Positions 1-11,609 of a DNA stretch of 11,609 nt are shown here, piece by piece (position 1 is the first letter of the stretch; each line of letters starts with the position of its first letter). The notes under the pieces were generated by a model. The model did not search any database, was not told the DNA's origin, and saw only the letters and a program-made list of their open reading frames with translations. The stretch lies in IMG/VR virus record IMGVR_UViG_2802429218_000006, positions 1 through 11,609 of that record. One strand, 5' to 3'. This DNA is from a virus. Taxonomy: Duplodnaviria; Heunggongvirae; Uroviricota; Caudoviricetes. A program made the translations under genes and the position numbers.

Positions 1-12
1 GATCTTCCGCCA
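1..12 (+). tRNA. selC: 3'-terminal fragment of tRNA-Sec gene (selC): acceptor 3' strand, discriminator and CCA; also the attL core. The gene body lies upstream of the window
   Basis: GATCTTCCGCCA matches the 3' end of E. coli selC as I recall it (..GGTTCGACTCCTGTGATCTTCCGCCA). The upstream part of that sequence is duplicated at the window end. Confidence 0.55.
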
Positions 13-123
13 AACAGCATCCAGCCAGTTCCGAGATACTCCATAAAACCCTTTATATTCAATACGATGAATAATCGGTTTGTCCGTAATAGTCCGAGAT
101 AATCTCCCTGAATCCGCGAAAAA

Positions 124-143
124 TATGTATAGTAATGTGTATA
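124..143. promoter_or_regulatory. Candidate integrase arm-type binding sites (tandem TATGTATA / ATGTGTATA) in the int promoter region
   Basis: The same tandem motif pair recurs at 11517-11536 on the other side of the att core. An inverted copy (TTATACAC, 167-174) overlaps the int start codon. Confidence 0.4.
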
Positions 144-174
144 GATTTTTTATACGTAGTTTTCAGTTATACAC

Positions 175-1362
175 ATGGCTCTAACCGATATACAGATCAA
201 ACGTGCAAAACCACAAGACAAACCATACACATTGAACGATGGACAAGGTCTGTCATTGCTTATCAATCCCGATGGCTCGAAAGGCTGGCGTTTCCGTTTC
301 CGGTTTGCAGGGAAAGCGCGGTTAATGTCATTTGGCAGCTACGATTTAGTAAGCCTTGCAGAAGCACGTGAGAAGCGTGACGTCGCCCGTAAGCAGGTTG
401 CGAATGGCATTGATCCTGTAGAGGAACGCAAAGCTTCAAGACTCGCTCAAAAGCTATCAACAGAAAATTCTTTCGAAGCCATATGTCGAGAATGGCATAC
501 CAACAGAGCTGACCGCTGGACAGTGGCCTATCGAGAAGAAATCATTAAGACATTCGAGCAAGATGTGTTCCCGTTCATTGGTAAACGCCCTATCAGTGAA
601 ATCAAACCATTGGAACTGCTTGAGGTATTGCGACGAATAGAGAAGCGTGGCGCATTAGAGAAGACAAGAAAAGTACGTCAAAGATGCGGTGAGGTATTTC
701 GTTATGCAATCGTAACTGGCCGAGCTGATTACAATCCAGCACCTGATTTAGCTATCGCGCTGGCCGTACCCAAGCAAAAACATTATCCGTTCTTATCCGC
801 AGAAGAGTTACCTCATTTTATTCGAGATCTGGAGGCATATACCGGCAGTATCATTACTAAAAATGCTACAAAGATAGTTATGCTAACTGGTGTTCGAACA
901 AAAGAGATGCGCTTTGCTACATGGGATGAGATTGACCTTGAGAAGGGGATATGGGAAATCCCAGCCGAAAGGATGAAAATGCGCAGACCTCACATAGTGC
1001 CGCTTTCTACTCAGGTAATCGACCTTTTCAAGCAACTCAAGCCGATTACTGGTCACTACCCTTATATTTTTATTGGCAGGAACAACCGTAGTAAACCGAT
1101 CTCAAAAGAAAGTGTGTCACAGGTAATTGAGTTACTAGGTTACAAAGGACGTGCTACCGGTCACGGTTTTAGACATACAATGTCGACAATTTTACATGAA
1201 CAGGGATTTGATAGTGCTTGGATTGAAATTCAGTTAGCCCATGTAGATAAAAATAGTATTCGAGGTACTTATAATCATGCTCAATATCTTGATAATCGGA
1301 GAAATATGATGCAGTGGTATGCGCAGCATATATATGGAAAAGTTATACAAGAGTCTAAATAA
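175..1362 (+). CDS. int: P4-family tyrosine integrase
   Basis: 395-aa ORF with an N-terminal arm-binding-like region, then a catalytic core showing box I Arg (LTGVRTKE), HGFRH (His-x-x-Arg) and a C-terminal Tyr (IRGTYNHAQY). Sits immediately next to the selC-derived att core. Confidence 0.9.
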   Translation: MALTDIQIKRAKPQDKPYTLNDGQGLSLLINPDGSKGWRFRFRFAGKARLMSFGSYDLVSLAEAREKRDVARKQVANGIDPVEERKASRLAQKLSTENSFEAICREWHTNRADRWTVAYREEIIKTFEQDVFPFIGKRPISEIKPLELLEVLRRIEKRGALEKTRKVRQRCGEVFRYAIVTGRADYNPAPDLAIALAVPKQKHYPFLSAEELPHFIRDLEAYTGSIITKNATKIVMLTGVRTKEMRFATWDEIDLEKGIWEIPAERMKMRRPHIVPLSTQVIDLFKQLKPITGHYPYIFIGRNNRSKPISKESVSQVIELLGYKGRATGHGFRHTMSTILHEQGFDSAWIEIQLAHVDKNSIRGTYNHAQYLDNRRNMMQWYAQHIYGKVIQESK

Positions 1363-1402
1363 ATTACTCATGAAGAAATATAGTCAATTATTAGGATGAA
1401 AT

Positions 1403-3058
1403 ATGATTAGTGCAAAAAACATTCTTTTCAGCAGTCGACATACTGATGCTGATGTAACTTTACATATCAATAATGTTATAAGATACCCCAAAAAATATAT
1501 GAATAATCATATCTATATATTAGATATAGACATGTATATTCAGACTGAAGACATGAAAAATCAAGCATATATAGATAATGACATTAGAAGCCCCCTGAAA
1601 ATGCTATTTATTGGAGAGGAACTAACAGAGTCAACTTTATTTGACTTATTATCCCAATCAGAAATATCGCTTCATGAAGTTAAGGTTAAATATGAATTTG
1701 ATTATATCTGTCAGATGTCAGAAGATGGATATAGATACATCAACAATAAATTAGAAACAGTCGCTTCATTATCTTTACTTAGAGCTATTAAGGATTTTGG
1801 TGTAAACTACAATATTATAAGAAACAAATCCTTTCTAAAAAAATATTCAGACAAGATATTCTCTACGTTATTACTAGATAACACTTTCAGTTCTTATGCC
1901 TTTGAAAATGGCTATAAATATTTTAATGTCGATGATGGTGCCGTTTACCAATTACAGCCCCCAACAAAATTTATTATTTATGACGAAGAAAAACAGCCGT
2001 ATAAACTTAAGATGGAGAGTCTGTTAAATATTAATATACCTATTCATGCACTAATTGGTAAGAATGGTAGCGGGAAAACCTATTTAATTAATAAAATAAT
2101 CAAACAATCTATTTCAACTGACCTAGAAATAAGATCTTCTGGCGCAGTTTTTAGTCGAATGATAGTTTTATCAAATACAATAAATGATAAGTGCTATAGA
2201 CCGGCAAATATAACCAAAAACAAATTCAAGTTAAATAACTATCATTTTGTATCGTTAACATCAGAAAAATATTATAATAAGCTTTTCCCACGAGGGAAAA
2301 AGCTAACTCTATTTTCTTTATTAGAAAAAATACAGAAACGAGATTCTAATAAGCGAGGTAACTTTGAACAGGGGGATTTGCTTGATAGAGTTACTCAAGA
2401 TATTATTCCCGAGTTTTCTTTTTCCATTAAAACAAATCTTGGGGAGCATATTTACAATAGTTTTTTAGAGTTAACTAGACAATATGGATTAGTTAATTTA
2501 AACTCAAACTTAGACTTAATTACGAGTTCAGAAATCGAATATGCATTACCTGATGAAGATATCCATTTCTATAAAAATAATGAACCCTTTACCTTAAGCT
2601 CAGGGCAATTATCTTTTTTAGTTAGCATGTTTTCTCTAATCTCAACAATAGAGAGTAATAGTCTTATACTTATAGAGGAACCAGAAAATTTTTTACACCC
2701 AAGTTTATTAACACATTTTATAAACTCACTAACACACATTCTAAGAGATACTAATTCTATCGCAATTATGGCCACCCACTCTGCTTTGGTACTTAGAGAA
2801 ATCCCTTCAGCACAAATAACAATCCTACATAGAAGAGACAATATCACCAACTATAAAACACCGAATATTGAAACATTTGGTGCCGATACTCATCAAATAA
2901 TGATAGACGTTTTTGGTGATTTATACTCTAATGCGATATTTAGAGAAGAGCTATCAAACATTGCAAAAAACAAAACAATCGATGAATTATTAGTGCAGTA
3001 TGGTGATTTACCTTCTGATGTATTAAATAAAATCATCATGGAGAAAAATTCAAAGTGA
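1403..3058 (+). CDS. ABC-type (SMC-head-like) ATPase with a ~200-aa N-terminal extension of unknown function; first gene of the candidate defence cassette
   Basis: Walker A GKNGSGKT (aa 219-226, nt 2057-2080); ABC signature LSSGQ (aa 398-402); Walker B LILIEEPENFLHP (aa 421-433, nt 2663-); H-loop ATHS (aa 457-460). Shine-Dalgarno AGGA lies 7 nt upstream of the ATG. Strongly AT-rich codon usage unlike the backbone. Confidence 0.85.
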   Translation: MISAKNILFSSRHTDADVTLHINNVIRYPKKYMNNHIYILDIDMYIQTEDMKNQAYIDNDIRSPLKMLFIGEELTESTLFDLLSQSEISLHEVKVKYEFDYICQMSEDGYRYINNKLETVASLSLLRAIKDFGVNYNIIRNKSFLKKYSDKIFSTLLLDNTFSSYAFENGYKYFNVDDGAVYQLQPPTKFIIYDEEKQPYKLKMESLLNINIPIHALIGKNGSGKTYLINKIIKQSISTDLEIRSSGAVFSRMIVLSNTINDKCYRPANITKNKFKLNNYHFVSLTSEKYYNKLFPRGKKLTLFSLLEKIQKRDSNKRGNFEQGDLLDRVTQDIIPEFSFSIKTNLGEHIYNSFLELTRQYGLVNLNSNLDLITSSEIEYALPDEDIHFYKNNEPFTLSSGQLSFLVSMFSLISTIESNSLILIEEPENFLHPSLLTHFINSLTHILRDTNSIAIMATHSALVLREIPSAQITILHRRDNITNYKTPNIETFGADTHQIMIDVFGDLYSNAIFREELSNIAKNKTIDELLVQYGDLPSDVLNKIIMEKNSK

Positions 3059-3954
3059 GAATTTTATCTAAGCCAGAGGGTATTGATGATCTACTTAATA
3101 ATATAGATCTTAACTCATCTATTGATGCCTTTTTATCGCTCGATGAACCGACTGGAATTGCTGACTTAAGAAATAAAAAAAATGATCTCTTGAACGAAAT
3201 TGAGAATTATCACACTGAGATGATTGAACGAGGTCATTTATCACATAACACGAGAAAAAACTTCTCAAAATATAAATCCATACTTGAGTGGATTTATTAT
3301 CACCCAAGTCAGCGAAGAAAAACAGACTACATAAACTCGATACGAAAACTTTACGCCCAAAGTGGAACTCTATGTCCTTACTGTGGGGTTTCTCCTTGCA
3401 GGACATTAGACCATTACTACAACAAAGCTTTATTACCACAGTTTTCATTTCTTCCTGAAAACCTTATTCCGTGCTGTGGTGATTGTAATAGAGACAAGGG
3501 AGCAAAAAAAGCCTTTAGCAAATGGAGAAGATTTGTCAATCCATTCTATGATGATTTCTCATCGTTAGAAAAAAATGAACCTCTCATATATATAATTTTC
3601 AAAGAAAGACCAAGATCTAGAATTGACATGGAATATGTAATGACAGCCAATCATAATCTAGACTTTTTAATAAGAAAACAAATAAACTATCACATTAGAA
3701 CAGTAAGAATCCCTTTCTATCATCATGAAGCCATAAGCAATTCATTTTGGAGAAACGCGAAAGACCTAATAAAGTTTAAAAAATTAGTCACTGACGGTGA
3801 TATAGATAATACAATTTATGATAAAATCATTGATGGTTTCATAGGCAAAAACAATGCTATGAATTATGACTGGGAATATATTATTAGATATTCATTAGTC
3901 AAACTTCGTATTAATCACTGGATTTATAACAGCAACCTACCAAAATTAATGTAG
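3055..3954 (+). CDS. HNH endonuclease-domain protein; second gene of the candidate defence cassette
   Basis: Zinc-finger HNH core CPYCG..LDHYY..N..CCGDCNRDKG (aa 107-148, nt 3373-3498) flanked by ~100-aa N-terminal and ~150-aa C-terminal regions of unknown function. GTG start at 3055 overlaps the TGA stop of the ATPase (GTGA), indicating translational coupling. Same AT-rich composition as the ATPase gene. Confidence 0.85.
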   Translation: MRILSKPEGIDDLLNNIDLNSSIDAFLSLDEPTGIADLRNKKNDLLNEIENYHTEMIERGHLSHNTRKNFSKYKSILEWIYYHPSQRRKTDYINSIRKLYAQSGTLCPYCGVSPCRTLDHYYNKALLPQFSFLPENLIPCCGDCNRDKGAKKAFSKWRRFVNPFYDDFSSLEKNEPLIYIIFKERPRSRIDMEYVMTANHNLDFLIRKQINYHIRTVRIPFYHHEAISNSFWRNAKDLIKFKKLVTDGDIDNTIYDKIIDGFIGKNNAMNYDWEYIIRYSLVKLRINHWIYNSNLPKLM

Positions 3955-4144
3955 CTCCAAAGAATGCATTAGCCTTGATGGTATATTTCAGTAGCATTGA
4001 GGCTAGTGTAAGGCCTAACTGGCAGGTAGCATCGAACAAAATACAAGCGCATTTATTAATTCTCAATTAGGTTGTTTAAAAATGATTCGAAAATATTTCA
4101 CCTGCTTAGGAGAAAAGAAAAAACATTTATCACTGCCACGCGCA

Positions 4145-4163
4145 GTGCTTTCCCCGCCTCGCC
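4145..4163. other. cos site: 19-nt cohesive end of P2/P4 type
   Basis: Plus strand reads GTGCTTTCCCCGCCTCGCC, the reverse complement of GGCGAGGCGGGGAAAGCAC (the P2/P4 cohesive end as I recall it). Flanked by GC-rich hairpins at 4160-4230. Lies between the cargo and psu, as in P4. Confidence 0.8.
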
Positions 4164-4264
4164 CGCCCGCTTTGCGGGGCAGTTTTAATGCAGTTTCACT
4201 GACACGCTCAGGCCGCGCCGGGAATGGCGCGGTCTGCAGAAAATGAGGCAGGAAAACGCATGCA

Positions 4265-4297
4265 AAGCCATGCACCTTATCGATGCATGGCTTTTTT
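4265..4297 (+). terminator. Rho-independent terminator-like hairpin (10-bp perfect stem plus T6) between cos and psu
   Basis: AAGCCATGCA (4265-4274), 9-nt loop, TGCATGGCTT (4284-4293), then a T-run to 4297. The T-tail is on the plus strand, so it would stop transcripts coming from the cargo or cos side. Confidence 0.55.
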
Positions 4298-4327
4298 CAG
4301 TAAAATCGGACGGATTTTCGGGGAGTT

Positions 4328-4900
4328 TTACACAGACTGACATGATGCCAGTTGCGCACTTTTACGCGAAAAAATCATGTTCTGCGCAGGGGTGAATTTT
4401 TCACGGCTGTCATCCACCGAAGCCGCGTCAGGCCTGAATCCGATGGTCGTTAAAATGTCGCTATCCTGTGCGGAATAATTAATTTTTTCACCCTTTGCAA
4501 GCCAGGACAGAAGGGCTTCACGCAGGGCATCTGTGGCACGCTGTATGGCACAGTTTCGGGCAATGGCCGTCAGCTCACTGTAGCCCATCAGCTCCGGTGC
4601 CAGTGCCGCCGCCAGTGCTGTGCCGTGCTGCTGCATAAAATCATTCAGCCGGTCGCGGATGCTGATGTGCTGAACGGCTTCATGCGAACGAATATAACGA
4701 CCGGCGGCCTGATTCACCTGCCATTTTCTGACTTCGATAATATTGCGTAATTCGTCCAGGCGACTGACGTTTCTGCCTTCCCCGGACAGAAGCCGCAGAT
4801 ATTCCTGTTCGGCCGCAGCCAGCTCATTTTTGCGTTGCAGCCATGCTGCTTTGTTATTCTGACAGGTGTCAAAGGCCTGCTGTAAGGCTGTGCTTTCCAT
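4328..4900 (-). CDS. psu: Polarity suppression protein Psu (capsid decoration / Rho antagonist)
   Basis: 190-aa ORF, the same length as P4 Psu, in the P4 position as last gene of the sid-delta-psu operon next to cos. N-terminus MESTALQQAFDT... matches my recollection of P4 Psu. Confidence 0.85.
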   Translation of the reverse strand: MESTALQQAFDTCQNNKAAWLQRKNELAAAEQEYLRLLSGEGRNVSRLDELRNIIEVRKWQVNQAAGRYIRSHEAVQHISIRDRLNDFMQQHGTALAAALAPELMGYSELTAIARNCAIQRATDALREALLSWLAKGEKINYSAQDSDILTTIGFRPDAASVDDSREKFTPAQNMIFSRKSAQLASCQSV

Positions 4901-4973
4901 CGTTATCTCTTTCTCATCATGCTGAAGAATAAAAATACGGTGTGCGGCGACGGCCGGTGTTAACCGGCAGCCC

Positions 4974-5474
4974 TCATTCCAGACGCAGCGAATATGATTG
5001 TGTTTTTAAGCGTACTGGCGGCAGTTCCTGTTTTTCATGCAGGCTTTCTGCCAGTTCGTCCGGCGTGACCGGGCGGACAATGAAACGGTTGATGGTCTGA
5101 AGCGTTTTAAACACCAGACCACAGCCCGGATCCGTGCACACATAAAAACGCTCGGTGACTTCCTGAGACAGACGCCGCGATGTTCTTGACAGTGCAAGGC
5201 CTTTACATCTCCGACAACAATATCCGGTAACAAGCATTCTTTTCGGGCGTTTCATGCTACCGGAGGCTGACGTCAGTGAATCGCGGTATCTCTGTTTGCC
5301 TGAAATGTATTCCATTCCTGAATCTTTACAGTCAGAGAAAAAGCTTTCACTCGCTTCAAATGTCGCAGAGCAATAAATATTCCGGCACTGTGCAATCATT
5401 ATCTTGGTGCCATCGTCCATGAAATGTGCGCGACGGGTGTGAGCAACATGTCCACACGACGGGCAGTAAATCAT
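4974..5474 (-). CDS. delta: Delta, a tandem Ogr-type zinc-finger late transcription activator
   Basis: 166 aa (the P4 Delta length). The N-terminal half follows the P2 Ogr pattern (CPSCGH.AH.R..DGTK...C.N..CSATF) and a second Cys4 module sits in the C-terminal half (CCRRC...CTDPGCG). Its start overlaps the sid stop (ATGA). Confidence 0.9.
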   Translation of the reverse strand: MIYCPSCGHVAHTRRAHFMDDGTKIMIAQCRNIYCSATFEASESFFSDCKDSGMEYISGKQRYRDSLTSASGSMKRPKRMLVTGYCCRRCKGLALSRTSRRLSQEVTERFYVCTDPGCGLVFKTLQTINRFIVRPVTPDELAESLHEKQELPPVRLKTQSYSLRLE

Positions 5475-6205
5475 GACAGCAGTCCTCTGGCCTTAAGCTC
5501 TGCTCCCTGCTGGTCTATTTTGTCCTGCCACACCTTGCGCTGTGCCGGTGTGCCTGCCACCTCATAATCCATGTGCGGGAGTGTTGCCGCTGACAGTCCG
5601 GTCAGCCGGAGAACCGGCTCGCCGGTGAGGCTGATTTGCATCTGTTTAATTTTCTGTTCCAGCGATGATTTCACCTGCTGCATGACAGCCTTTTCCGGTG
5701 CGACGTAGCCCTGATGGCCGGTGGTGTTGGCGAGCGGATTTTCCTGTACCAGTATGCTCAGATGCATTGCCCGGACAAGCGCCTCACAGGTTTCATTCAG
5801 GGCGTGTTCCAGCTCATTCTCTGCATACAGACTCAGAAGGTGATGATGTGCCTTCCGGTAGGCGGTGGCCGTGCTGTCACACGCCCCTTTCAGGCGTTCA
5901 CGTTCAAAATTCAGCACCACGGCCAGATTGTCATATTCCTGTACCAGCTCCCGGCGTGCCACGCGCTCAATGTGGCGCTGTTTCAGCTCGTCGCTCAGGA
6001 CACCACCGGCTGCACGAAAGGCCGTGCGCCAGTCGTCAGCGTCGTTTCCGTCGGCCTGCGCCAGCGCATTTTTTTCCTGCTCTGCCCGTTCAATGGCCGT
6101 GACGGTCTCATCCATCAGGCGGGCGTTCTCAAGATGGGCGGCTCTGGCCTTTTCCAGTTGTGCCAGCGCGGGTTGCAGATATTCAGGGATGGTGTTGTCA
6201 GACAT
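5471..6205 (-). CDS. sid: Sid external scaffold / capsid size-determination protein
   Basis: The ATG at 6205 with a GAGGAG Shine-Dalgarno gives 244 aa, the P4 Sid length. The ORF track extends to a GTG at 6223 (250 aa), which I consider less likely. First gene of the late operon. Confidence 0.8.
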   Translation of the reverse strand: MSDNTIPEYLQPALAQLEKARAAHLENARLMDETVTAIERAEQEKNALAQADGNDADDWRTAFRAAGGVLSDELKQRHIERVARRELVQEYDNLAVVLNFERERLKGACDSTATAYRKAHHHLLSLYAENELEHALNETCEALVRAMHLSILVQENPLANTTGHQGYVAPEKAVMQQVKSSLEQKIKQMQISLTGEPVLRLTGLSAATLPHMDYEVAGTPAQRKVWQDKIDQQGAELKARGLLS

Positions 6206-6239
6206 TTTCCGGCTCCTCGTCACTTCAGGTTAAGAAAAT

Positions 6240-6295
6240 TGTGACGTACACCGGACAACAACACGACGCATTGCAGATGTGCCAGCCCTGACACA
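6240..6295. promoter_or_regulatory. Late-promoter region with two TGT-N12-ACA dyads: candidate Delta/Ogr binding sites for the divergent Psid and PLL promoters
   Basis: TGT(6240-6242)-N12-ACA(6255-6257) and TGT(6278-6280)-N12-ACA(6293-6295). The second is centred about 55 bp upstream of a plausible sid transcription start near 6230. The motif is short, so chance occurrence is possible. Confidence 0.4.
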
Positions 6296-6374
6296 GGAGA
6301 CTCATCCTCAGACCGGCAAGCCAGGAAAAGGTCGCAGGAAAAACCGGCTTACTGTTTGTTTTTTTATGTTTTAC

Positions 6375-6478
6375 TGTTCACCTCTGTTCACCATAAGAAA
6401 AAAGATAAGTAATACAGTAAGTTAAAGGGTGAGCAATCGCAGTAATGACTGTTCACCGTCTGTTCACCACTGTTCACC
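6375..6478. repeat. ori-like iteron cluster: five copies of the TGTTCACC octamer (type I iterons, alpha-binding), followed by an AT-rich stretch (6479-6570)
   Basis: TGTTCACC at 6375-6382, 6385-6392, 6450-6457, 6461-6468 and 6471-6478. The same octamer is reiterated in crr downstream of alpha, about 4.8 kb away. Confidence 0.75.
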
Positions 6479-6756
6479 CGTTCATGGACTTTTTGTGCTG
6501 TGTATTACTTTTTATTTTTATTAATTAACTGAAATAAATAAGAAAAAACAATTTGTATTTCACTATAATTTTTTCCAGCTCCTTCCAGAGCGTTTTAAAG
6601 CTATCTGGCGCTGATGTGCAAAAAACACACAGCAATTGTAAGGCTGCCGGAACAAATCCCCCCTGTTGCGTCTGCTGAAAATATTCACAAAATAAAGCGC
6701 TACCCGAAGCCGGACGGACTTATCCGGTGCTGTATGGACATTAACGAGGTAGCCCG

Positions 6757-7023
6757 ATGCAAGCTGTTTTTTCTTCCCCGTCTCCTGCCCCTGTGACGCC
6801 ACTGATGCCGCTGCCGGACATCACGCAGGAGCGTTTTTTACGTCTGCCGGAAGTGATGCACCTGTGCGGCCTGTCACGCTCGACCATCTACGAACTCATC
6901 CGTAAGGGGGAATTTCCGCCGCAGGTGAGTCTTGGCGGTAAAAATGTGGCCTGGCTGCACTCTGAAGTCACCGCATGGATGGCCGGGCGCATTGCCGGAC
7001 GCAAACGGGGGTACGACGCATGA
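6757..7023 (+). CDS. vis: Vis / AlpA-family helix-turn-helix regulator (excision and late-gene control)
   Basis: 88 aa (the size of P4 orf88/vis) with an AlpA-like HTH segment ([28 protein letters not shown]). GAGG Shine-Dalgarno 8 nt upstream. First gene of the plus-strand left operon. Confidence 0.75.
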
Positions 7024-7574
7024 TGATGCCTGTTCTGCAAAAACTCCCTTTTTCTGGCTTGCCTTTTTCCGGCATTTGCGGATATAGTTTTTCCGCTGTC
7101 GCAAAATCGGCAGCCGGGCGTAGGAACCCGAGTTACTTCAAGGCGACATATGACGCGCCATGCGTCTTTTTTTACGTCGTTGCTTCGGCACACCTGTTTT
7201 TCTGGCTGTGGTTTTTAAACCGTAGCCTCTGTCAGATAATGGTGGTCCGGGCGGGGCAGCCTTCGGGCTGGCCGGTTTCCTTGAAGGCCGGTATTCCTAC
7301 CCCCGTCCGGGCTACCACCCATGAGCGTAGGAACTCCAGTGGTAGCTGTAACTGTTACTTCAAGGAGGCTGCCATCATGGCTACAACCCTTACCCCCTCA
7401 CACCCTGAATTTGTCTTTGTGTTTGCGGCTGTCCGTCGCGCAGACCGTCATCCCCGTATCTGCATGCTTCGCACCGTCGCCGGTGATGAACGCAGCGCCC
7501 GCCGTTCCCTTGTCCGTGACTATGTGCTCTCCCTTGCTGCCCGTCTGCCGGTGGTGGAGGTGTCCCGTGCGTAA
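6975..7574 (+). CDS. Possible eta-like ORF (199 codons) that reads through the immunity-RNA region, with the kil-like ORF nested in the same frame
   Basis: A 600-nt open frame starting inside vis, upstream of the PLE-like promoter, and spanning the structured RNA region. Consistent with the nested kil/eta arrangement described for P4, but the protein is low-complexity and could be an artefact of GC-rich sequence. Confidence 0.3.
7059..7088 (+). promoter_or_regulatory. Candidate sigma-70 promoter (PLE-like) driving the immunity / left operon
   Basis: TTGCCT (7059-7064), 18-bp spacer, TATAGT (7083-7088), about 30 bp upstream of seqA. Confidence 0.45.
7118..7143 (+). promoter_or_regulatory. seqA-like target site for the immunity RNA
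   Basis: GCGTAGGAAC..TTACTTCAAGG. The two blocks are complementary to CCTTGAAG (7279-7286) and TTCCTAC (7294-7300) inside the structured RNA. Confidence 0.55.
7241..7320 (+). ncRNA. cI: CI-like immunity RNA (P4-type antisense RNA carrying seqB); boundaries approximate
   Basis: Highly structured segment: GGTGGTCCGGGCGGGG pairs with CCCCGTCCGGGCTACCACC (one G-T wobble and a 3-nt bulge), plus an internal CAGCC-TTCG-GGCTG hairpin. The internal seqB blocks are complementary to both flanking seqA and seqC. Confidence 0.5.
7325..7365 (+). promoter_or_regulatory. seqC-like target site overlapping the ribosome-binding site of the kil-like ORF
   Basis: GCGTAGGAAC (7325-7334) and TTACTTCAAGG (7355-7365) repeat the two seqA blocks. 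The second block runs straight into the AGGAGG Shine-Dalgarno of the ORF starting at 7377. Confidence 0.55.
7377..7574 (+). CDS. Small kil-like protein (65 aa); resembles the Ash/Icd-like small proteins of P4-type prophages
   Basis: Strong AGGAGG Shine-Dalgarno 8 nt upstream of the ATG. First ORF after the immunity RNA. Sequence [25 protein letters not shown]... Confidence 0.55.
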
Positions 7575-7854
7575 TAAAAAAGCCCCTCAGACCGTCTCAG
7601 CGCGTCATGACGCCCGTGAACACCTCAGCATTGAGGCTTACCATAAGCTCAACCGCGCCAGCGCCGTATCCCAGTTTGTTGGGGGTGATTTGATTCACCG
7701 TGAACTCTCCGGCCTGCATCAGCTCTACATTCCGCATATTTTCAGTTACCTGAATGAAGATATTGATTTTGTGCTGAATGAACTGAAAGCCAAAGGCCTG
7801 TGCCGCGATTTTCTCGCCCAGCAGAAAGACCGGGGAGACAGGACGCATGTTTGA
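7567..7854 (+). CDS. Epsilon-sized small protein (95 aa) with a GTG start; position and size match P4 epsilon, the derepression protein
   Basis: No in-frame ATG exists. The GTG at 7567 is preceded by GGAGG at 6-nt spacing and overlaps the stop of the kil-like ORF. Product length is exactly 95 aa. Identification is by synteny and size only. Confidence 0.45.
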
Positions 7855-8308
7855 TTTTCCCCAGCCCGGTGAGATTTACCGTTCTGCCGGTTTTCCCGAT
7901 GTGGCCGTGGTCGGCATTCTGGAAGACGGTATTCCGTGGGAAATGCCGTACCGCTGCCCGGACATTGTCTGGAACCCGTACCGCCGTAAATTCAGTATCC
8001 TTGTGCGTATCCTCGCTGACGGGCGCACCACAGACATCCCGCTGGGGCGTTTTCTGCGGGAATTTACCTGTGACCGTCCTGACCTGTTCAAACGCAGCCC
8101 CGTAAACCGGCATGCGGTACTGAAAGAAATGGCCGGAGACCCGGAATTACAGAAATGGCGGGAGAAATATCTGGATATTTACCCGCAGGACCCTGTTCCG
8201 GTCAGCCGGGCGGCACCGGTGGCGCGGGAATGGCGGGAAATTCCCCGCACGGAGCCTGACCCGGCCCCCCCCCCCCGGATAACAGTTACCGCAATTATCT
8301 GTAATTAA
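7847..8308 (+). CDS. Hypothetical protein, orf151-like by position (153 aa); contains a C12 homopolymer near its 3' end
   Basis: ATG overlaps the stop of the preceding ORF (ATGTTTGA). The C12 run at 8265-8276 encodes the PAPPP segment of the product. Confidence 0.6.
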
Positions 8309-8439
8309 AAAACGACACCCGAAAAATTAAATGTGCGTATTCGCGCAGGGATACGCACGTCTTCAGGAGACGCAGATATGTCTTATCAGTTAATGCAACC
8401 GGCACGGAATGCAGTCATCTGTCACAGGGAGGAAAGCAA

Positions 8440-8760
8440 ATGAAAACACCCTTACCGCCCGTCTTACGCGCTGCCCTTTACCGTCGCGCTGTCGCCTGTG
8501 CCTGGCTGACCGTGTGCGAACGTCAGCACCGCTACCCGCATCTCACCCTTGAGTCACTGGAGGCGGCCATCGCCGCTGAGCTGGAAGGCTTTTATCTGCG
8601 CCAGCACGGTGAGGAAAAAGGGCGCCAGATAGCCTGTGCCCTGCTGGAAGATTTAATGGAATCCGGCCCCCTGAAGGCCGCGCCGTCGCTGTCCTTTCTC
8701 GGGCTGGTTGTGATGGATGAACTCTGTGCCCGTCACATAAAAGCGCCGGTACTGCACTGA
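8440..8760 (+). CDS. cnr: cnr-sized protein (106 aa); copy-number-control candidate
   Basis: GGGAGG Shine-Dalgarno. 106 aa equals P4 cnr (orf106), and it lies immediately upstream of alpha as in P4. Identification is by synteny and size only. Confidence 0.5.
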
Positions 8761-8774
8761 AGGAGAACAACACC

Positions 8775-11108
8775 ATGAAAATGAACGTAACCGCCACCGT
8801 CAGCCATGCGCTCGGCCACTGGCCGCGTATTCTCCCGGCGCTGGGGATTCAGGTGCTGAAAAACCGTCATCAGCCCTGTCCGGTCTGTGGCGGGAGTGAC
8901 CGCTTCCGTTTTGATGACAGGGAGGGGCGCGGCACCTGGTACTGCAATCAGTGTGGTGCCGGTGACGGCCTGAAACTGGTTGAAAAGGTGTTTGGTGTTT
9001 CCCCGTCCGACGCGGCCGCAAAGGTGGCTGCCGTGACCGGCAGTCTGCCACCGGCTGACCCGGCAGTGACGGCTGCCGCCGGTGCTGAAACAGACGCTGC
9101 CCGGAAGAACGCCGCCGCACTGGCACAAACCCTGATGGCGAAAACCTGTCCCGGAACCGGTAACGCCTACCTGACCCGCAAGGGCTTTCCCGGCCGGGAA
9201 TGCCGGATGCTGACCGGCACACACAGAGCCGGTGGCGTGAGCTGGCGCGCCGGTGACCTTGTGGTGCCACTGTATGACGACAGCGGCGAACTGGTTAACC
9301 TTCAGTTAATCAGTGCTGACGGCCGTAAGCGCACCCTGAAAGGCGGACAGGTCAGGGGCACCTGTCACACCTTTGAAGGACAGAATCAGGCCGGAAAACG
9401 TCTGTGGATAGCGGAGGGATACGCGACCGCACTTACCGTGCATCACCTGACCGGTGAAACGGTGATGGTGGCGCTTTCTTCCGTGAATCTCCTTTCTCTG
9501 GCCAGCCTTGCCCGGCAGAAGCATCCGGCCTGTCAGATTGTCCTTGCCGCAGACCGTGACCTCAGCGGTGACGGCCAGAAAAAAGCCGCCGCAGCCGCAG
9601 ATGCGTGTGAAGGTGTTGTTGCCCTGCCGCCGGTCTTCGGTGACTGGAATGATGCCTTCACGCAGTACGGCGGGGAAGCCACCCGTAAGGCCATTTATGA
9701 TGCCATCCGGCCACCGGCTGAAAGCCCGTTCGACACCATGAGCGAAGCGGAGTTTTCCGCCATGAGTACCAGCGAAAAGGCCATGCGTATCTATGAGCAT
9801 TACGGCGAGGCGCTCGCGGTCGATGCCAACGGCCAGCTTCTGTCCCGTTATGAAAATGGTGTCTGGAAGGTGCTGCCACCACAGGACTTTGCCCGGGATG
9901 TGGCCGGGCTGTTTCAGCGGCTGCGTGCGCCGTTCTCCTCCGGGAAGGTGGCCTCCGTGGTGGACACCCTGAAGCTGATTATTCCGCAGCAGGAAGCCCC
10001 CTCCCGCCGCCTGATTGGCTTTCGTAACGGCGTGCTCGACACGCAGAACGGCACGTTCCACCCGCACAGTCCGTCACACTGGATGCGCACCCTGTGCGAT
10101 GTGGATTTCACCCCGCCGGTGGAAGGGGAAACGCTGGAAACCCACGCCCCCGCGTTCTGGCGCTGGCTTGACCGTGCCGCCGGTGGCCGTGCGGAAAAAC
10201 GCGACGTGATTCTGGCCGCACTGTTTATGGTGCTGGCAAACCGCTACGACTGGCAGCTCTTTCTGGAGGTGACCGGTCCCGGCGGCAGCGGCAAAAGTAT
10301 CATGGCCGAAATAGCCACCCTGCTGGCCGGGGAGGATAACGCCACGTCGGCCACCATCGAGACGCTGGAATCCCCGCGTGAACGTGCCGCGTTAACTGGC
10401 TTCTCACTGATACGCCTGCCGGACCAGGAAAAATGGAGCGGCGACGGTGCCGGACTCAAGGCCATCACCGGCGGCGATGCGGTGTCCGTTGACCCGAAAT
10501 ACCGGGATGCATACTCCACGCATATCCCGGCGGTAATTCTGGCCGTGAACAATAACCCGATGCGCTTCACCGACCGCAGCGGCGGCGTGTCACGCCGGCG
10601 GGTGATTATTCACTTCCCGGAACAGATAGCCCCGCAGGAGCGCGACCCGCAGCTTAAGGACAAAATCACCCGCGAGCTGGCGGTCATCGTGCGTCACCTG
10701 ATGCAGAAGTTCAGCGACCCGATGCTCGCCCGGTCACTGCTTCAGTCCCAGCAGAACTCAGACGAGGCACTGAACATCAAACGGGATGCCGACCCGACGT
10801 TTGATTTTATCGGCTATCTGGAAACCCTGCCGCAGACCAGCGGCATGTATATGGGGAACGCCAGTATCATCCCGCGTAATTACCGTAAATACCTCTATCA
10901 CGCCTATCTGGCCTACATGGAGGCAAACGGCTACCGGAATGTACTCAGTCTGAAAATGTTCGGGCTGGGGCTGCCGGTGATGCTGAAGGAATACGGACTG
11001 AATTACGAGAAGCGCCATACCAAACAGGGGATACAGACCAACCTGACGCTGAAAGAGGAAAGCTACGGCGACTGGCTGCCAAAATGTGACGACCCTGCAA
11101 CAACCTGA
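8775..11108 (+). CDS. alpha: Alpha primase-helicase replication protein
   Basis: 777 aa (the P4 alpha length). N-terminal zinc-ribbon primase motif CPVCGGSDRFRFDD..WYCNQCG, a TOPRIM-like region, and a C-terminal helicase Walker A GPGGSGKS. AGGAG Shine-Dalgarno upstream. Confidence 0.92.
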   Translation: MKMNVTATVSHALGHWPRILPALGIQVLKNRHQPCPVCGGSDRFRFDDREGRGTWYCNQCGAGDGLKLVEKVFGVSPSDAAAKVAAVTGSLPPADPAVTAAAGAETDAARKNAAALAQTLMAKTCPGTGNAYLTRKGFPGRECRMLTGTHRAGGVSWRAGDLVVPLYDDSGELVNLQLISADGRKRTLKGGQVRGTCHTFEGQNQAGKRLWIAEGYATALTVHHLTGETVMVALSSVNLLSLASLARQKHPACQIVLAADRDLSGDGQKKAAAAADACEGVVALPPVFGDWNDAFTQYGGEATRKAIYDAIRPPAESPFDTMSEAEFSAMSTSEKAMRIYEHYGEALAVDANGQLLSRYENGVWKVLPPQDFARDVAGLFQRLRAPFSSGKVASVVDTLKLIIPQQEAPSRRLIGFRNGVLDTQNGTFHPHSPSHWMRTLCDVDFTPPVEGETLETHAPAFWRWLDRAAGGRAEKRDVILAALFMVLANRYDWQLFLEVTGPGGSGKSIMAEIATLLAGEDNATSATIETLESPRERAALTGFSLIRLPDQEKWSGDGAGLKAITGGDAVSVDPKYRDAYSTHIPAVILAVNNNPMRFTDRSGGVSRRRVIIHFPEQIAPQERDPQLKDKITRELAVIVRHLMQKFSDPMLARSLLQSQQNSDEALNIKRDADPTFDFIGYLETLPQTSGMYMGNASIIPRNYRKYLYHAYLAYMEANGYRNVLSLKMFGLGLPVMLKEYGLNYEKRHTKQGIQTNLTLKEESYGDWLPKCDDPATT

Positions 11109-11124
11109 CCATCATGACTCATCT

Positions 11125-11149
11125 GACCGGCATCTGCCGGTCTTTTTTT
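11125..11149 (+). terminator. Rho-independent terminator downstream of alpha
   Basis: GACCGGC (11125-11131), loop ATCT, GCCGGTC (11136-11142), then T7 (11143-11149): a perfect 7-bp stem. Confidence 0.8.
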
Positions 11150-11166
11150 ATCCCTGAATTCCCCGA

Positions 11167-11468
11167 AGGTGAACAATCCACTGTTCACCCTTCACCGTAT
11201 ATTCACTCGTTATCACACTGAAATTAAAAGAGAAAAACGAAAGGTGAACAGTGTGAACAATCAAATCAAAAAAAACTTTTTTTCTCCCTGTGTGATTTCA
11301 GTACGGGGGATTAATCACCGGTATGAGTCACACCGGCAGAATGCCGGAGGTGAAGAATCGAATGTTCACCCTTCACCCATTATTCACTACCTATCATACT
11401 GAAATAAAAGGAGAAAAAAGAAAGGTGAACAGTGTGAACAGTTCTTTCGAAAAAAAATTTTTTTCCTG
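11167..11468. repeat. crr (cis replication region): two ~121-bp direct repeats (11167-11287 and 11348-11468, period 181 bp), each carrying TGTTCACC / GGTGAACA iterons and ending in an A8/T8 tract
   Basis: The repeats align along their whole length with a few substitutions. Iterons at 11168-11175, 11182-11189 and 11243-11250, plus the equivalent positions in the second copy. Confidence 0.8.
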
Positions 11469-11516
11469 AGTTAACGTGCGTGAAGATACGTGTAAAAATT
11501 AATCGATAGATATTAT

Positions 11517-11536
11517 ATGTATAAGGATGTGTATAA
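11517..11536. promoter_or_regulatory. Candidate integrase arm-type binding sites (ATGTATAA / ATGTGTATAA) on the attR side
   Basis: Same tandem motif pair as at 124-143 on the attL/int side. Confidence 0.4.
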
Positions 11537-11593
11537 ATGAATTATAATAGAAAAATATAAACGATTTGAATCAAATGGTTATATGGCAATTTT

Positions 11594-11609
11594 GACTCCT
11601 GTGATCTTC
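11594..11609. repeat. attR core: direct repeat of the selC 3' end (GACTCCTGTGATCTTC, truncated by the window edge)
   Basis: Matches the selC segment immediately 5' of the bases at window positions 1-12. The T at 11593 where selC has C marks the edge of identity. Confidence 0.6.

Follow-up and report, generated by a model that had tools for sequence, protein, structure and literature searches.

The tRNA-Sec gene selC is a classic target of genomic islands. The islands LEE, SHI-2, PAI I536, SPI-3 and LPA have been described at this site, and a 24-bp direct repeat is reported at selC (PMC6174562). According to three papers that cite it, phiR73, a P4-like cryptic prophage or retronphage described in 1991 (Sun, Inouye & Inouye 1991, J Bacteriol 173:4171; Inouye et al. 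1991, Science 252:969), also resides in E. coli selC (PMC6174562, PMC8628076, PMC9122126), and the last of these describes a variable defence hotspot for P4-like satellites, with Septu among the reported cargo (PMC9122126). In KplE1, five GTTCG-type sites of TorI, an AlpA-family recombination directionality factor (RDF), have been mapped experimentally; they form two blocks in the segment from the argW core to intS, and intS is repressed both by TorI and by IntS (PMC2951348). Typical RDF sites are direct repeats with a spacing of one helical turn, and the Vis protein of the satellite P4 bends attachment-site (att) DNA (PMC7498355) and represses the P4 int promoter (PMC7286903). The present analysis concerns the viral record IMGVR_UViG_2802429218_000006, a stretch of 11,609 nucleotides (nt) analysed over its full length and called the window below, with a focus on the att sites at its two ends and on the element enclosed by them.

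The window can be taken, with high confidence, as one complete copy of a P4-like phage satellite in E. coli selC, cut inside both of its att repeats. The two partial cores are as follows:

1-14, plus strand: attL-side partial att core, core nt 10-23, from comparison with tRNA-Sec, the K-12 attB and the near-identical copies.
11594-11609, plus strand: attR-side partial att core, comprising core nt 1-16, with the sequence of selC nt 75-90.

The final 12 nt of selC (tRNA-Sec nt 84-95, including CCA) stand at positions 1-12 as GATCTTCCGCCA, and positions 11594-11609 read GACTCCTGTGATCTTC. The reference was the annotated tRNA-Sec of E. coli BS15R-A (L001 2918-3012; compared loci are cited by L numbers) and of K-12 MG1655 (L003 2223-2317), the same gene in both, with the 3' terminus ...GGTTCGACTCCTGTGATCTTCCGCCA / ...GGCAGGTTCGACTCCTGTGATCTTCCGCCA. 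The next two window bases (AA, 13-14) are common to the attL side and the attB trailer. Both ends of the window carry the heptamer GATCTTC (positions 1-7 and 11603-11609), and the last 21 nt of selC are recovered when the ends are overlapped on it; plain concatenation would duplicate GATCTTC. At position 11593, the window has T where selC has C, which marks the left edge of the identity block. The duplicated core of the near-identical chromosomal copies is 23 bp long, 21 nt of selC plus AA (GACTCCTGTGATCTTCCGCCAAA), and it is 22 bp long in strains with the flank AATTT. The window is neither exactly one period of the element nor bounded by full repeats: its boundaries overlap by 7 nt inside the 23-bp core, which most likely reflects a coordinate choice or the convention of the delimiting tool. 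A search for inverted core-type repeats flanking GATCTTC, with a strand-exchange overlap region in mind, found none. ARAGORN called no tRNA in the window, as was expected because just 12 nt of the tRNA gene are present. The two bases following CCAA differ among strains (AAATG versus TTTG).

An earlier, sequence-only reading of the window had taken its ends for attL and attR cores derived from the selC 3' end and had suggested aligning them with E. coli selC. The alignment, run on the annotated tRNA-Sec, gave exact matches of 12 and 16 nt at the termini and agreed with that assignment, and it confirmed the T for C at 11593 as lying at the core edge. The statement that the joined ends rebuild the selC 3' end stands for the last 21 nt, but only with the 7-nt overlap. 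Likewise, the duplicated core does derive from selC as had been proposed, but its extent had to be corrected, since the full repeat is 23 bp rather than 21 and the window holds parts of it.

The full window (1-11609) aligns in many complete E. coli chromosomes, with tRNA-Sec on one side and a rhuM remnant and setC on the other; in L001 and L002, the element lies between yicJ/tRNA-Sec and the rhuM remnant, setC and yicL. The near-identical chromosomal copies (99.9-99.99% identity) have a full selC upstream and a 23-bp direct repeat bounding the element. No record was identical throughout; the best two, L005 and L007, match the window at 99.99%, the sole difference being a poly-C run with 11 C against 12 C in the window. 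Their attL junction reads ...caggttcGACTCCTGTGATCTTCCGCCAAAcagcatcc and their attR junction ...caattttGACTCCTGTGATCTTCCGCCAAAatgcctct, while the empty attB of K-12 reads caggttcGACTCCTGTGATCTTCCGCCAAAatgcctct, with selC directly joined to the sequence otherwise found after attR. An exact look-up of the cargo ATPase retrieved 10 contigs, and the body of selC, the upstream flank named in the sequence-only reading as the point to check, was found in all of them (10/10), as a full 95-nt gene ending at the position of window nt 12. Four of the 10 contigs reach the far end of the element, where attR is followed by the K-12 sequence downstream of selC. One or other arm of the att region of the window is present in 476 of 5,426 complete E. 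coli genomes. A RhuM-family pseudogene fragment lies directly after attR (L001 14424-14585) and also after the K-12 selC (L003 2426-2557; yicT); it possibly remains from an earlier selC island, in which case the attB flank itself would not be pristine.

The kinship with P4 extends over 62% of the window (4164-11463), which is 97% identical to P4 and covers cos, psu, delta, sid, ori, vis, the immunity region, alpha and crr. The core set of a P4-like satellite (psu, delta, sid, alpha, an AlpA-type regulator and an integrase) is present, with the P4-type proteins 98-99% identical in amino acids (aa). The non-P4 part, 1-4163, comprises the integrase and a two-gene cargo. The collinear match to P4 starts at 4164, the counterpart of the final base in the linear P4 record, and the ends of that record are its cohesive ends. 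The region around this position is listed here:

4131-4205, no strand: cos region common with P2-like helper phages (85-90% match to P2-family phages).

Several observations count against the window being an integrated satellite copy with the att sites as described. It contains no chromosomal flank, and the integration of this particular copy is deduced from the near-identical copies; moreover, no biological reason was found for the 7-nt overlap of its boundaries. The contiguous attP junction was absent from viral contigs (IMG/VR) and metagenome contigs (JGI), both queried with 40-41 nt, and from the 5,426 complete E. coli genomes, queried with 80 nt, a rare circle being seldom captured; the best E. 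coli matches to the 80-nt junction were attL plus a few mismatched bases. Since the attP junction was not found, there is no evidence of current mobility. A simple sigma-70 scan of positions 1-400 found no int promoter, and the binding assignments made below for the arm repeats and TCC blocks rest on positional homology and covariation.

The missing junction bears equally on the alternative already raised in the sequence-only reading, that of a circularly permuted record. The window would then stem from a P4-like genome that was excised, episomal or packaged, and its ends would be the two halves of attP. Such a record would fit a window of nearly exactly one unit length, ends that overlap by GATCTTC and close into a perfect attP, and the lack of chromosomal flank. 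However, the junction is absent from all three collections, and all four near-identical copies covering both ends lie in chromosomes, between selC-side and setC-side flanks. The 7-nt overlap is also far below the terminal repeat of an assembler, and a packaged linear P4-type genome would terminate at cos (~4131-4205), not at att. The circular origin is thus unsupported and we consider it very improbable; even then, the att core would be the same and would still derive from selC. Weaker by far, to the point of being negligible, is the notion that the ends resemble selC by chance or through low complexity, without any recombination meaning. The segments are indeed short (12 and 16 nt), and nothing else speaks for it. 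Both matches are exact and each lies exactly at a terminus, with chance expectations of 4^-12 for the 12-mer at the first base and 4^-16 for the 16-mer at the last base, and a search for the remaining selC 11-mers across the whole window found no further occurrence. Moreover, int starts 163 nt past the tRNA end, as in dozens of related tRNA-integrated elements, and the near-identical chromosomal copies with selC upstream and the 23-bp repeat rule a chance match out. A satellite copy integrated in selC and cut inside both att repeats is, accordingly, the reading followed below.

The att core is followed by the gene of its presumed recombinase:

175-1362, plus strand: P4-family tyrosine integrase (Int), 395 aa, of a selC-specific clade (Pfam, relatives).

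Three Pfam domains were recognized in Int: Arm-DNA-bind_3 (5e-27), Phage_int_M (1e-35) and Phage_integrase (4e-26). It is 41% identical to P4 Int over the full length. Its relatives were collected by an Int-alignment scan with one genome per species, from which the 80 best loci were kept. In 30 of these 80, tRNA-Sec lies immediately upstream of int, and in most others another tRNA or a transfer-messenger RNA (tmRNA) gene does. The identity to the window over the C-terminal part of Int (residues 96 to the end) separates the two groups, with at least 72% for the tRNA-Sec loci versus at most 65% for the other tRNA/tmRNA loci; the value is 69% for L039, where no tRNA was called. The distance from the tRNA/tmRNA 3' end to the int start was about 163-166 nt in most loci where it could be called (L015-L094), implying a strongly constrained architecture of attL and the int promoter. 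This spacing spans Enterobacterales as well as metagenome-assembled genomes labelled Rickettsiales, Burkholderiales, Desulfobacterota and others, with Int about 45% identical.

Twelve tRNA-Sec loci encode an Int at least 89% identical to that of the window; they come from Enterobacter, Edwardsiella, Raoultella, Serratia, Mangrovibacter, Kluyvera and Scandinavium, and from L024. The Int of L032 (filed under Vagococcus) belongs to the same group, its contig being cut before the tRNA. The longer loci of this group also encode homologues of Psu, Sid, Delta and Alpha. Because Int at least 89% identical stands at tRNA-Sec in these genera together with P4 genes, a selC-specific satellite lineage is, as judged from these sequences, widespread in Enterobacterales. 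The exact Int sequence was found on 374 contigs, and its 90%-identity cluster has 2,979 members. Two loci carry labels from outside this order, L024 ("uncultured Streptococcus sp.") with selC upstream and L032 ("Vagococcus sp.") with P4 satellite genes, both with Int 89-93% identical; they are almost certainly contaminating or mis-binned Enterobacterales DNA.

On both sides of the core, the element carries short repeats, not listed in the sequence-only reading and designated here as putative arm-type sites:

123-144, plus strand: P' arm tandem pair, putative arm-type sites, ATATGTATAG-TAATGTGTATAG (ATATGTATAGTAATGTGTATAG), at offset +131 from the core.
150-159, minus strand: degenerate inverted arm-type copy, putative, TTATACGTAG (from the sequence).
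167-176, minus strand: inverted arm-type copy, putative, TTATACACAT, overlapping the int ATG at 175.
11515-11536, plus strand: P arm tandem pair, putative arm-type sites, ATATGTATAAGGATGTGTATAA, at offset -79 from the core.

This arrangement is close to the one annotated in the P4 GenBank record, where a 20-bp core is accompanied by tandem pairs of a 12-bp arm repeat from 77 nt upstream and 132 nt downstream and by an inverted repeat over the int start. Relative to the core, the P pair is thus at -79 in the window and at -77 in P4, the P' pair is at +131 and +132, respectively, and an inverted copy lies at the int ATG in both. GTATA-type motifs were then counted in the 120 nt before int in 79 related loci. 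In the 17 loci with at least three such motifs, the Int N-terminal domain (N-domain) was 59-97% identical to that of the window versus 40-57% in the other 62, with no overlap, and the pattern was independent of the tRNA (Sec, Arg(CCT), Gly(CCC) or none). Since the GTATA motifs co-vary with the Int N-domain across the 79 loci, the ATGTGTATAG-type repeats are likely to be integrase arm-type sites read by the Arm-DNA-bind_3 domain. Two Int lineages occur on the same selC core, one with GGGGG(C/T)A sites (L026-L038, L041, L042) and one with GTATA(G/A) sites (L015-L025). The selC loci with GGGGG-type sites have 72-78% C-terminal identity to the window Int versus 41-57% N-domain identity, and this difference, lying mainly in the N-domain, suggests either exchange at the domain level or divergence.

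A second class of repeats lies in the P' arm between the core and int. The nonamer TCCGAGATA occurs exactly twice in the window, at 30-38 and 93-101 (expected 0.04; none of 200 shuffles gave two copies). A 9-nt direct repeat of any kind arises in 5% of shuffles of the 160-nt arm, so that TCCGAGATA alone is borderline; the direct repeat listed at these positions in the sequence-only reading was nevertheless exact, and it was accepted as real because it is conserved in relatives. Each copy is the best-conserved, central member of a block of TCC repeats spaced about one helical turn apart, the seven TCC triplets, all in the 160-nt P' arm between core and int, being at 20, 30 and 40 and at 83, 93, 105 and 113. 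The blocks, and the gene of the protein to which they are ascribed below, are as follows:

20-42, plus strand: block I of phased TCC repeats, proposed Vis block; holds TCCGAGATA 30-38 and matches the position of TorI block I1;2.
83-116, plus strand: block II of phased TCC repeats, proposed Vis block; holds TCCGAGATA 93-101 and matches the position of TorI block I3;4;5.
6757-7023, plus strand: vis, AlpA-family excisionase/RDF, 88 aa, 99% identical to P4 ORF88/Vis (Pfam AlpA).

In an alignment of 12 selC loci from at least six genera together with P4, the TCC/TCCGA columns were conserved and the rest of the nonamer was variable. At the same core offsets, +39 and +102, P4 has TCCGAGA and TCCGAGG. 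Vis is 99% identical in amino acids between P4 and the window, as opposed to only 39% for Int. Lineages without a close Vis homologue in the compared locus sequence have other phased motifs at the same two places (GTCTAC, GTTCGCC, TTACCAC, TTCCCAT). For comparison with KplE1, the published TorI coordinates were shifted by 1,980 nt, the offset of the intS ATG between the paper and NC_000913.3. Counted from the tRNA end, the K-12 TorI blocks then span +6..+33 and +69..+96, the intS ATG is at +162 and one site reads GTCCG; in the window, the TCC blocks span +8..+30 and +71..+104 and the int ATG is at +163. For P4, Cali et al. 2004 reportedly described two Vis-bound boxes between the core and int. 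On comparative grounds, the TCC blocks, including TCCGAGATA, are probably Vis sites. The candidate role of TCCGAGATA as an integrase arm-type site was rejected: the motif does not follow the Int N-domain and sits where the RDF sites of KplE1 lie.

The blocks could instead be additional integrase sites, sites of integration host factor (IHF) or Fis, or merely conserved sequence of the int promoter. The Vis assignment of this element is based on sequence comparison and analogy, a 9-nt repeat by itself is within the reach of shuffling as stated above, and a conserved CC-TTAT-T-CA block stands between the two TCC blocks. A high-affinity IHF site is known in the P4 int regulatory region (PMC7286903). 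Inspection of the CC-TTAT-T-CA block by eye gave no clean match to the IHF consensus WATCAANNNNTTR. These options are unlikely when set against the distribution of the motif, which follows Vis (99% common with P4) and not Int or the type of arm site. In lineages without a close Vis, different phased motifs occupy the same places, and motifs specific to lineages therefore point to a reader encoded by the element rather than to a host factor. Moreover, the arrangement in two blocks agrees with that of the experimentally mapped TorI sites, and the agreement extends to sequence (GTCCG). Phased repeats of the TCC type were also sought around the P4 late promoter region (6200-6800); just an irregular TCC cluster at ~6575-6590 was seen, which is uninformative.

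With the TCC blocks taken as Vis sites, the att region as a whole can be viewed as a three-way mosaic, in which each class of site tracks an independently exchangeable protein module; we lean slightly towards this view. In such a mosaic, the core may track the Int C-terminal domains and thereby the selC specificity, and the GTATA-type arm sites may track the Int N-domain, a domain type that also occurs in elements at tRNA-Arg and tRNA-Gly. The phased TCC blocks may track Vis, a protein common to this element and the leuX-specific P4. If the mosaic is true, TCCGAGATA would be the recognition element of Vis, and P4-like satellites would be able to swap their integration specificity while keeping the control of excision.

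Taken together, the sites are seen to operate as follows. In the first, well-supported steps, the P4-family tyrosine integrase recombined the 23-bp attP core GACTCCTGTGATCTTCCGCCAAA with the identical sequence of selC, the core spanning from the fourth T-loop base through CCA plus two trailer bases. The core copy brought by the element thus regenerates an intact tRNA gene at attL, leaving a gene-less duplicate at attR. The C-terminal domains of Int presumably read the core, and its N-terminal domain the ATGTGTATAG-type repeats, two in the P arm and two direct plus two inverted in P'. Vis may bind the TCC blocks at 20-42 and 83-116, bending attL for excision and repressing int. Excision and packaging would depend on a P2-like helper that supplies the capsid and acts on the shared cos. 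The junctions expected from excision are an attP reading GGCAATTTTGACTCCTGTGATCTTCCGCCAAACAGCATCC and a repaired attB reading GGTTCGACTCCTGTGATCTTCCGCCAAAATGCC.

Apart from the integrase, the cos region and vis, the following features were identified in the satellite:

1403-3954, plus strand: cargo, an AAA_21/AAA_15 ATPase (551 aa) followed by an overlapping 299-aa partner (PADLOC).
4328-6223, minus strand: psu, delta and sid, capsid-size and late-control genes (98-99% aa identity to P4).
4328-4900: Psu (Pfam).
4974-5474: Ogr/Delta (Pfam).
6975-7574: Ash-family protein (Pfam).
7095-7172, plus strand: isrK RNA (Rfam, 70 bits), intact.
7235-7322, plus strand: C4/CI antisense immunity RNA (Rfam, 86 bits), intact.
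8440-8760: DUF5375 (Pfam).
8775-11108, plus strand: alpha primase-helicase, 777 aa (P4 comparison, Pfam primase domains).
11169-11463, no strand: crr, cis-required replication region, the last P4-homologous segment before the P arm.

The cargo pair matched a candidate defence family of PADLOC best, with PDC-M01A (1.5e-48) and PDC-M01B (7e-27), the PtuA models scoring 1e-36, below PDC-M01A. No Pfam domain, HNH included, was found in the second protein (299 aa), the homologue of which is named HNH endonuclease by RefSeq in L001. The pair is a candidate Septu-like defence system in the variable region of the satellite. In L001, the cargo ATPase gene is annotated 150 nt shorter. The aforementioned run of 12 C (8264-8275; 11 C in L005 and L007) lies inside the homologue of P4 ORF151 (7847-8308), which is called with 144 aa in L005/L007 and 151 aa in L006 and P4, the open reading frame of the window having 153 aa. 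This difference could be due to a slippage-prone tract or to a sequencing error. The crr consists of two direct repeats of ~120 bp between the alpha terminator and the P arm, with GGTGAACAGTGTGAACA-type iterons.

P4-like elements with defence cargo have been catalogued in thousands, and the combination of a P4-like satellite, insertion in selC and duplication of the tRNA 3' end has been familiar since phiR73 (1991); the element of the window is nothing new in kind. What is added is the exact setting of its boundaries, with a 23-bp core, attL at 1-14 and attR at 11594-11609. The site map of attP could guide excision assays and help to engineer selC-specific P4-type integrases. The covariation of the Int N-domain with the arm sites and of Vis with the TCC blocks is a comparative confirmation of the KplE1 and lambda models, not a discovery.

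Among the known systems, phiR73, as portrayed in the citing papers, is a P4-like satellite inserted in selC, with its integrase adjoining the tRNA and the tRNA 3' end directly repeated, all as in the window. It differs in cargo, a retron in phiR73 versus an ATPase and HNH-like pair (PDC-M01, Septu-like) in the window. Comparison of the window Int with a phage collection gave no record more than 80% identical and two at 60-80%, neither of these being among the 12 matches listed, and phiR73 did not come up. Because phiR73 was not found in this collection, its link to the window rests on the citations and on E. coli relatives that have the ends of the window with a reverse-transcriptase cargo (H27, H41). 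The selC islands use the same attB, repeat the selC 3' end directly and encode a P4-family integrase, but they are large and non-satellite. The non-satellite selC loci of our scan (L026-L038, L041, L042; identity with the named islands unchecked) use GGGGG-type arm sites.

KplE1 (CPS-53; argW, IntS, TorI) resembles the window in an attL that overlaps the integrase promoter region, in RDF blocks at nearly the same distances, in arm-type sites before and over the int ATG and in an AlpA-family RDF (PMC2951348). It differs in tRNA target and type of element, and the binding that has been shown in KplE1 is inferred for the window. With the IntS-type integrases of phages HK633 and Sf6 and of the argW loci L061 and L064, the window Int shares about 48% identity, the K-12 IntS itself not having been aligned. 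P4 (X51522, leuX attP) has the same succession as the window, with the P tandem pair, the core, the two TCC blocks, the P' tandem pair and the inverted copy at the int ATG, and both cores run from the fourth T-loop base to CCA. In P4, however, the core is leuX-derived rather than selC-derived, the arm sites are of the GGGGGCAT type rather than the GTATA type, and the gop/beta/cII region stands where the window carries its defence cargo. Overall, the predicted attL layout of the window follows the KplE1/P4 model.

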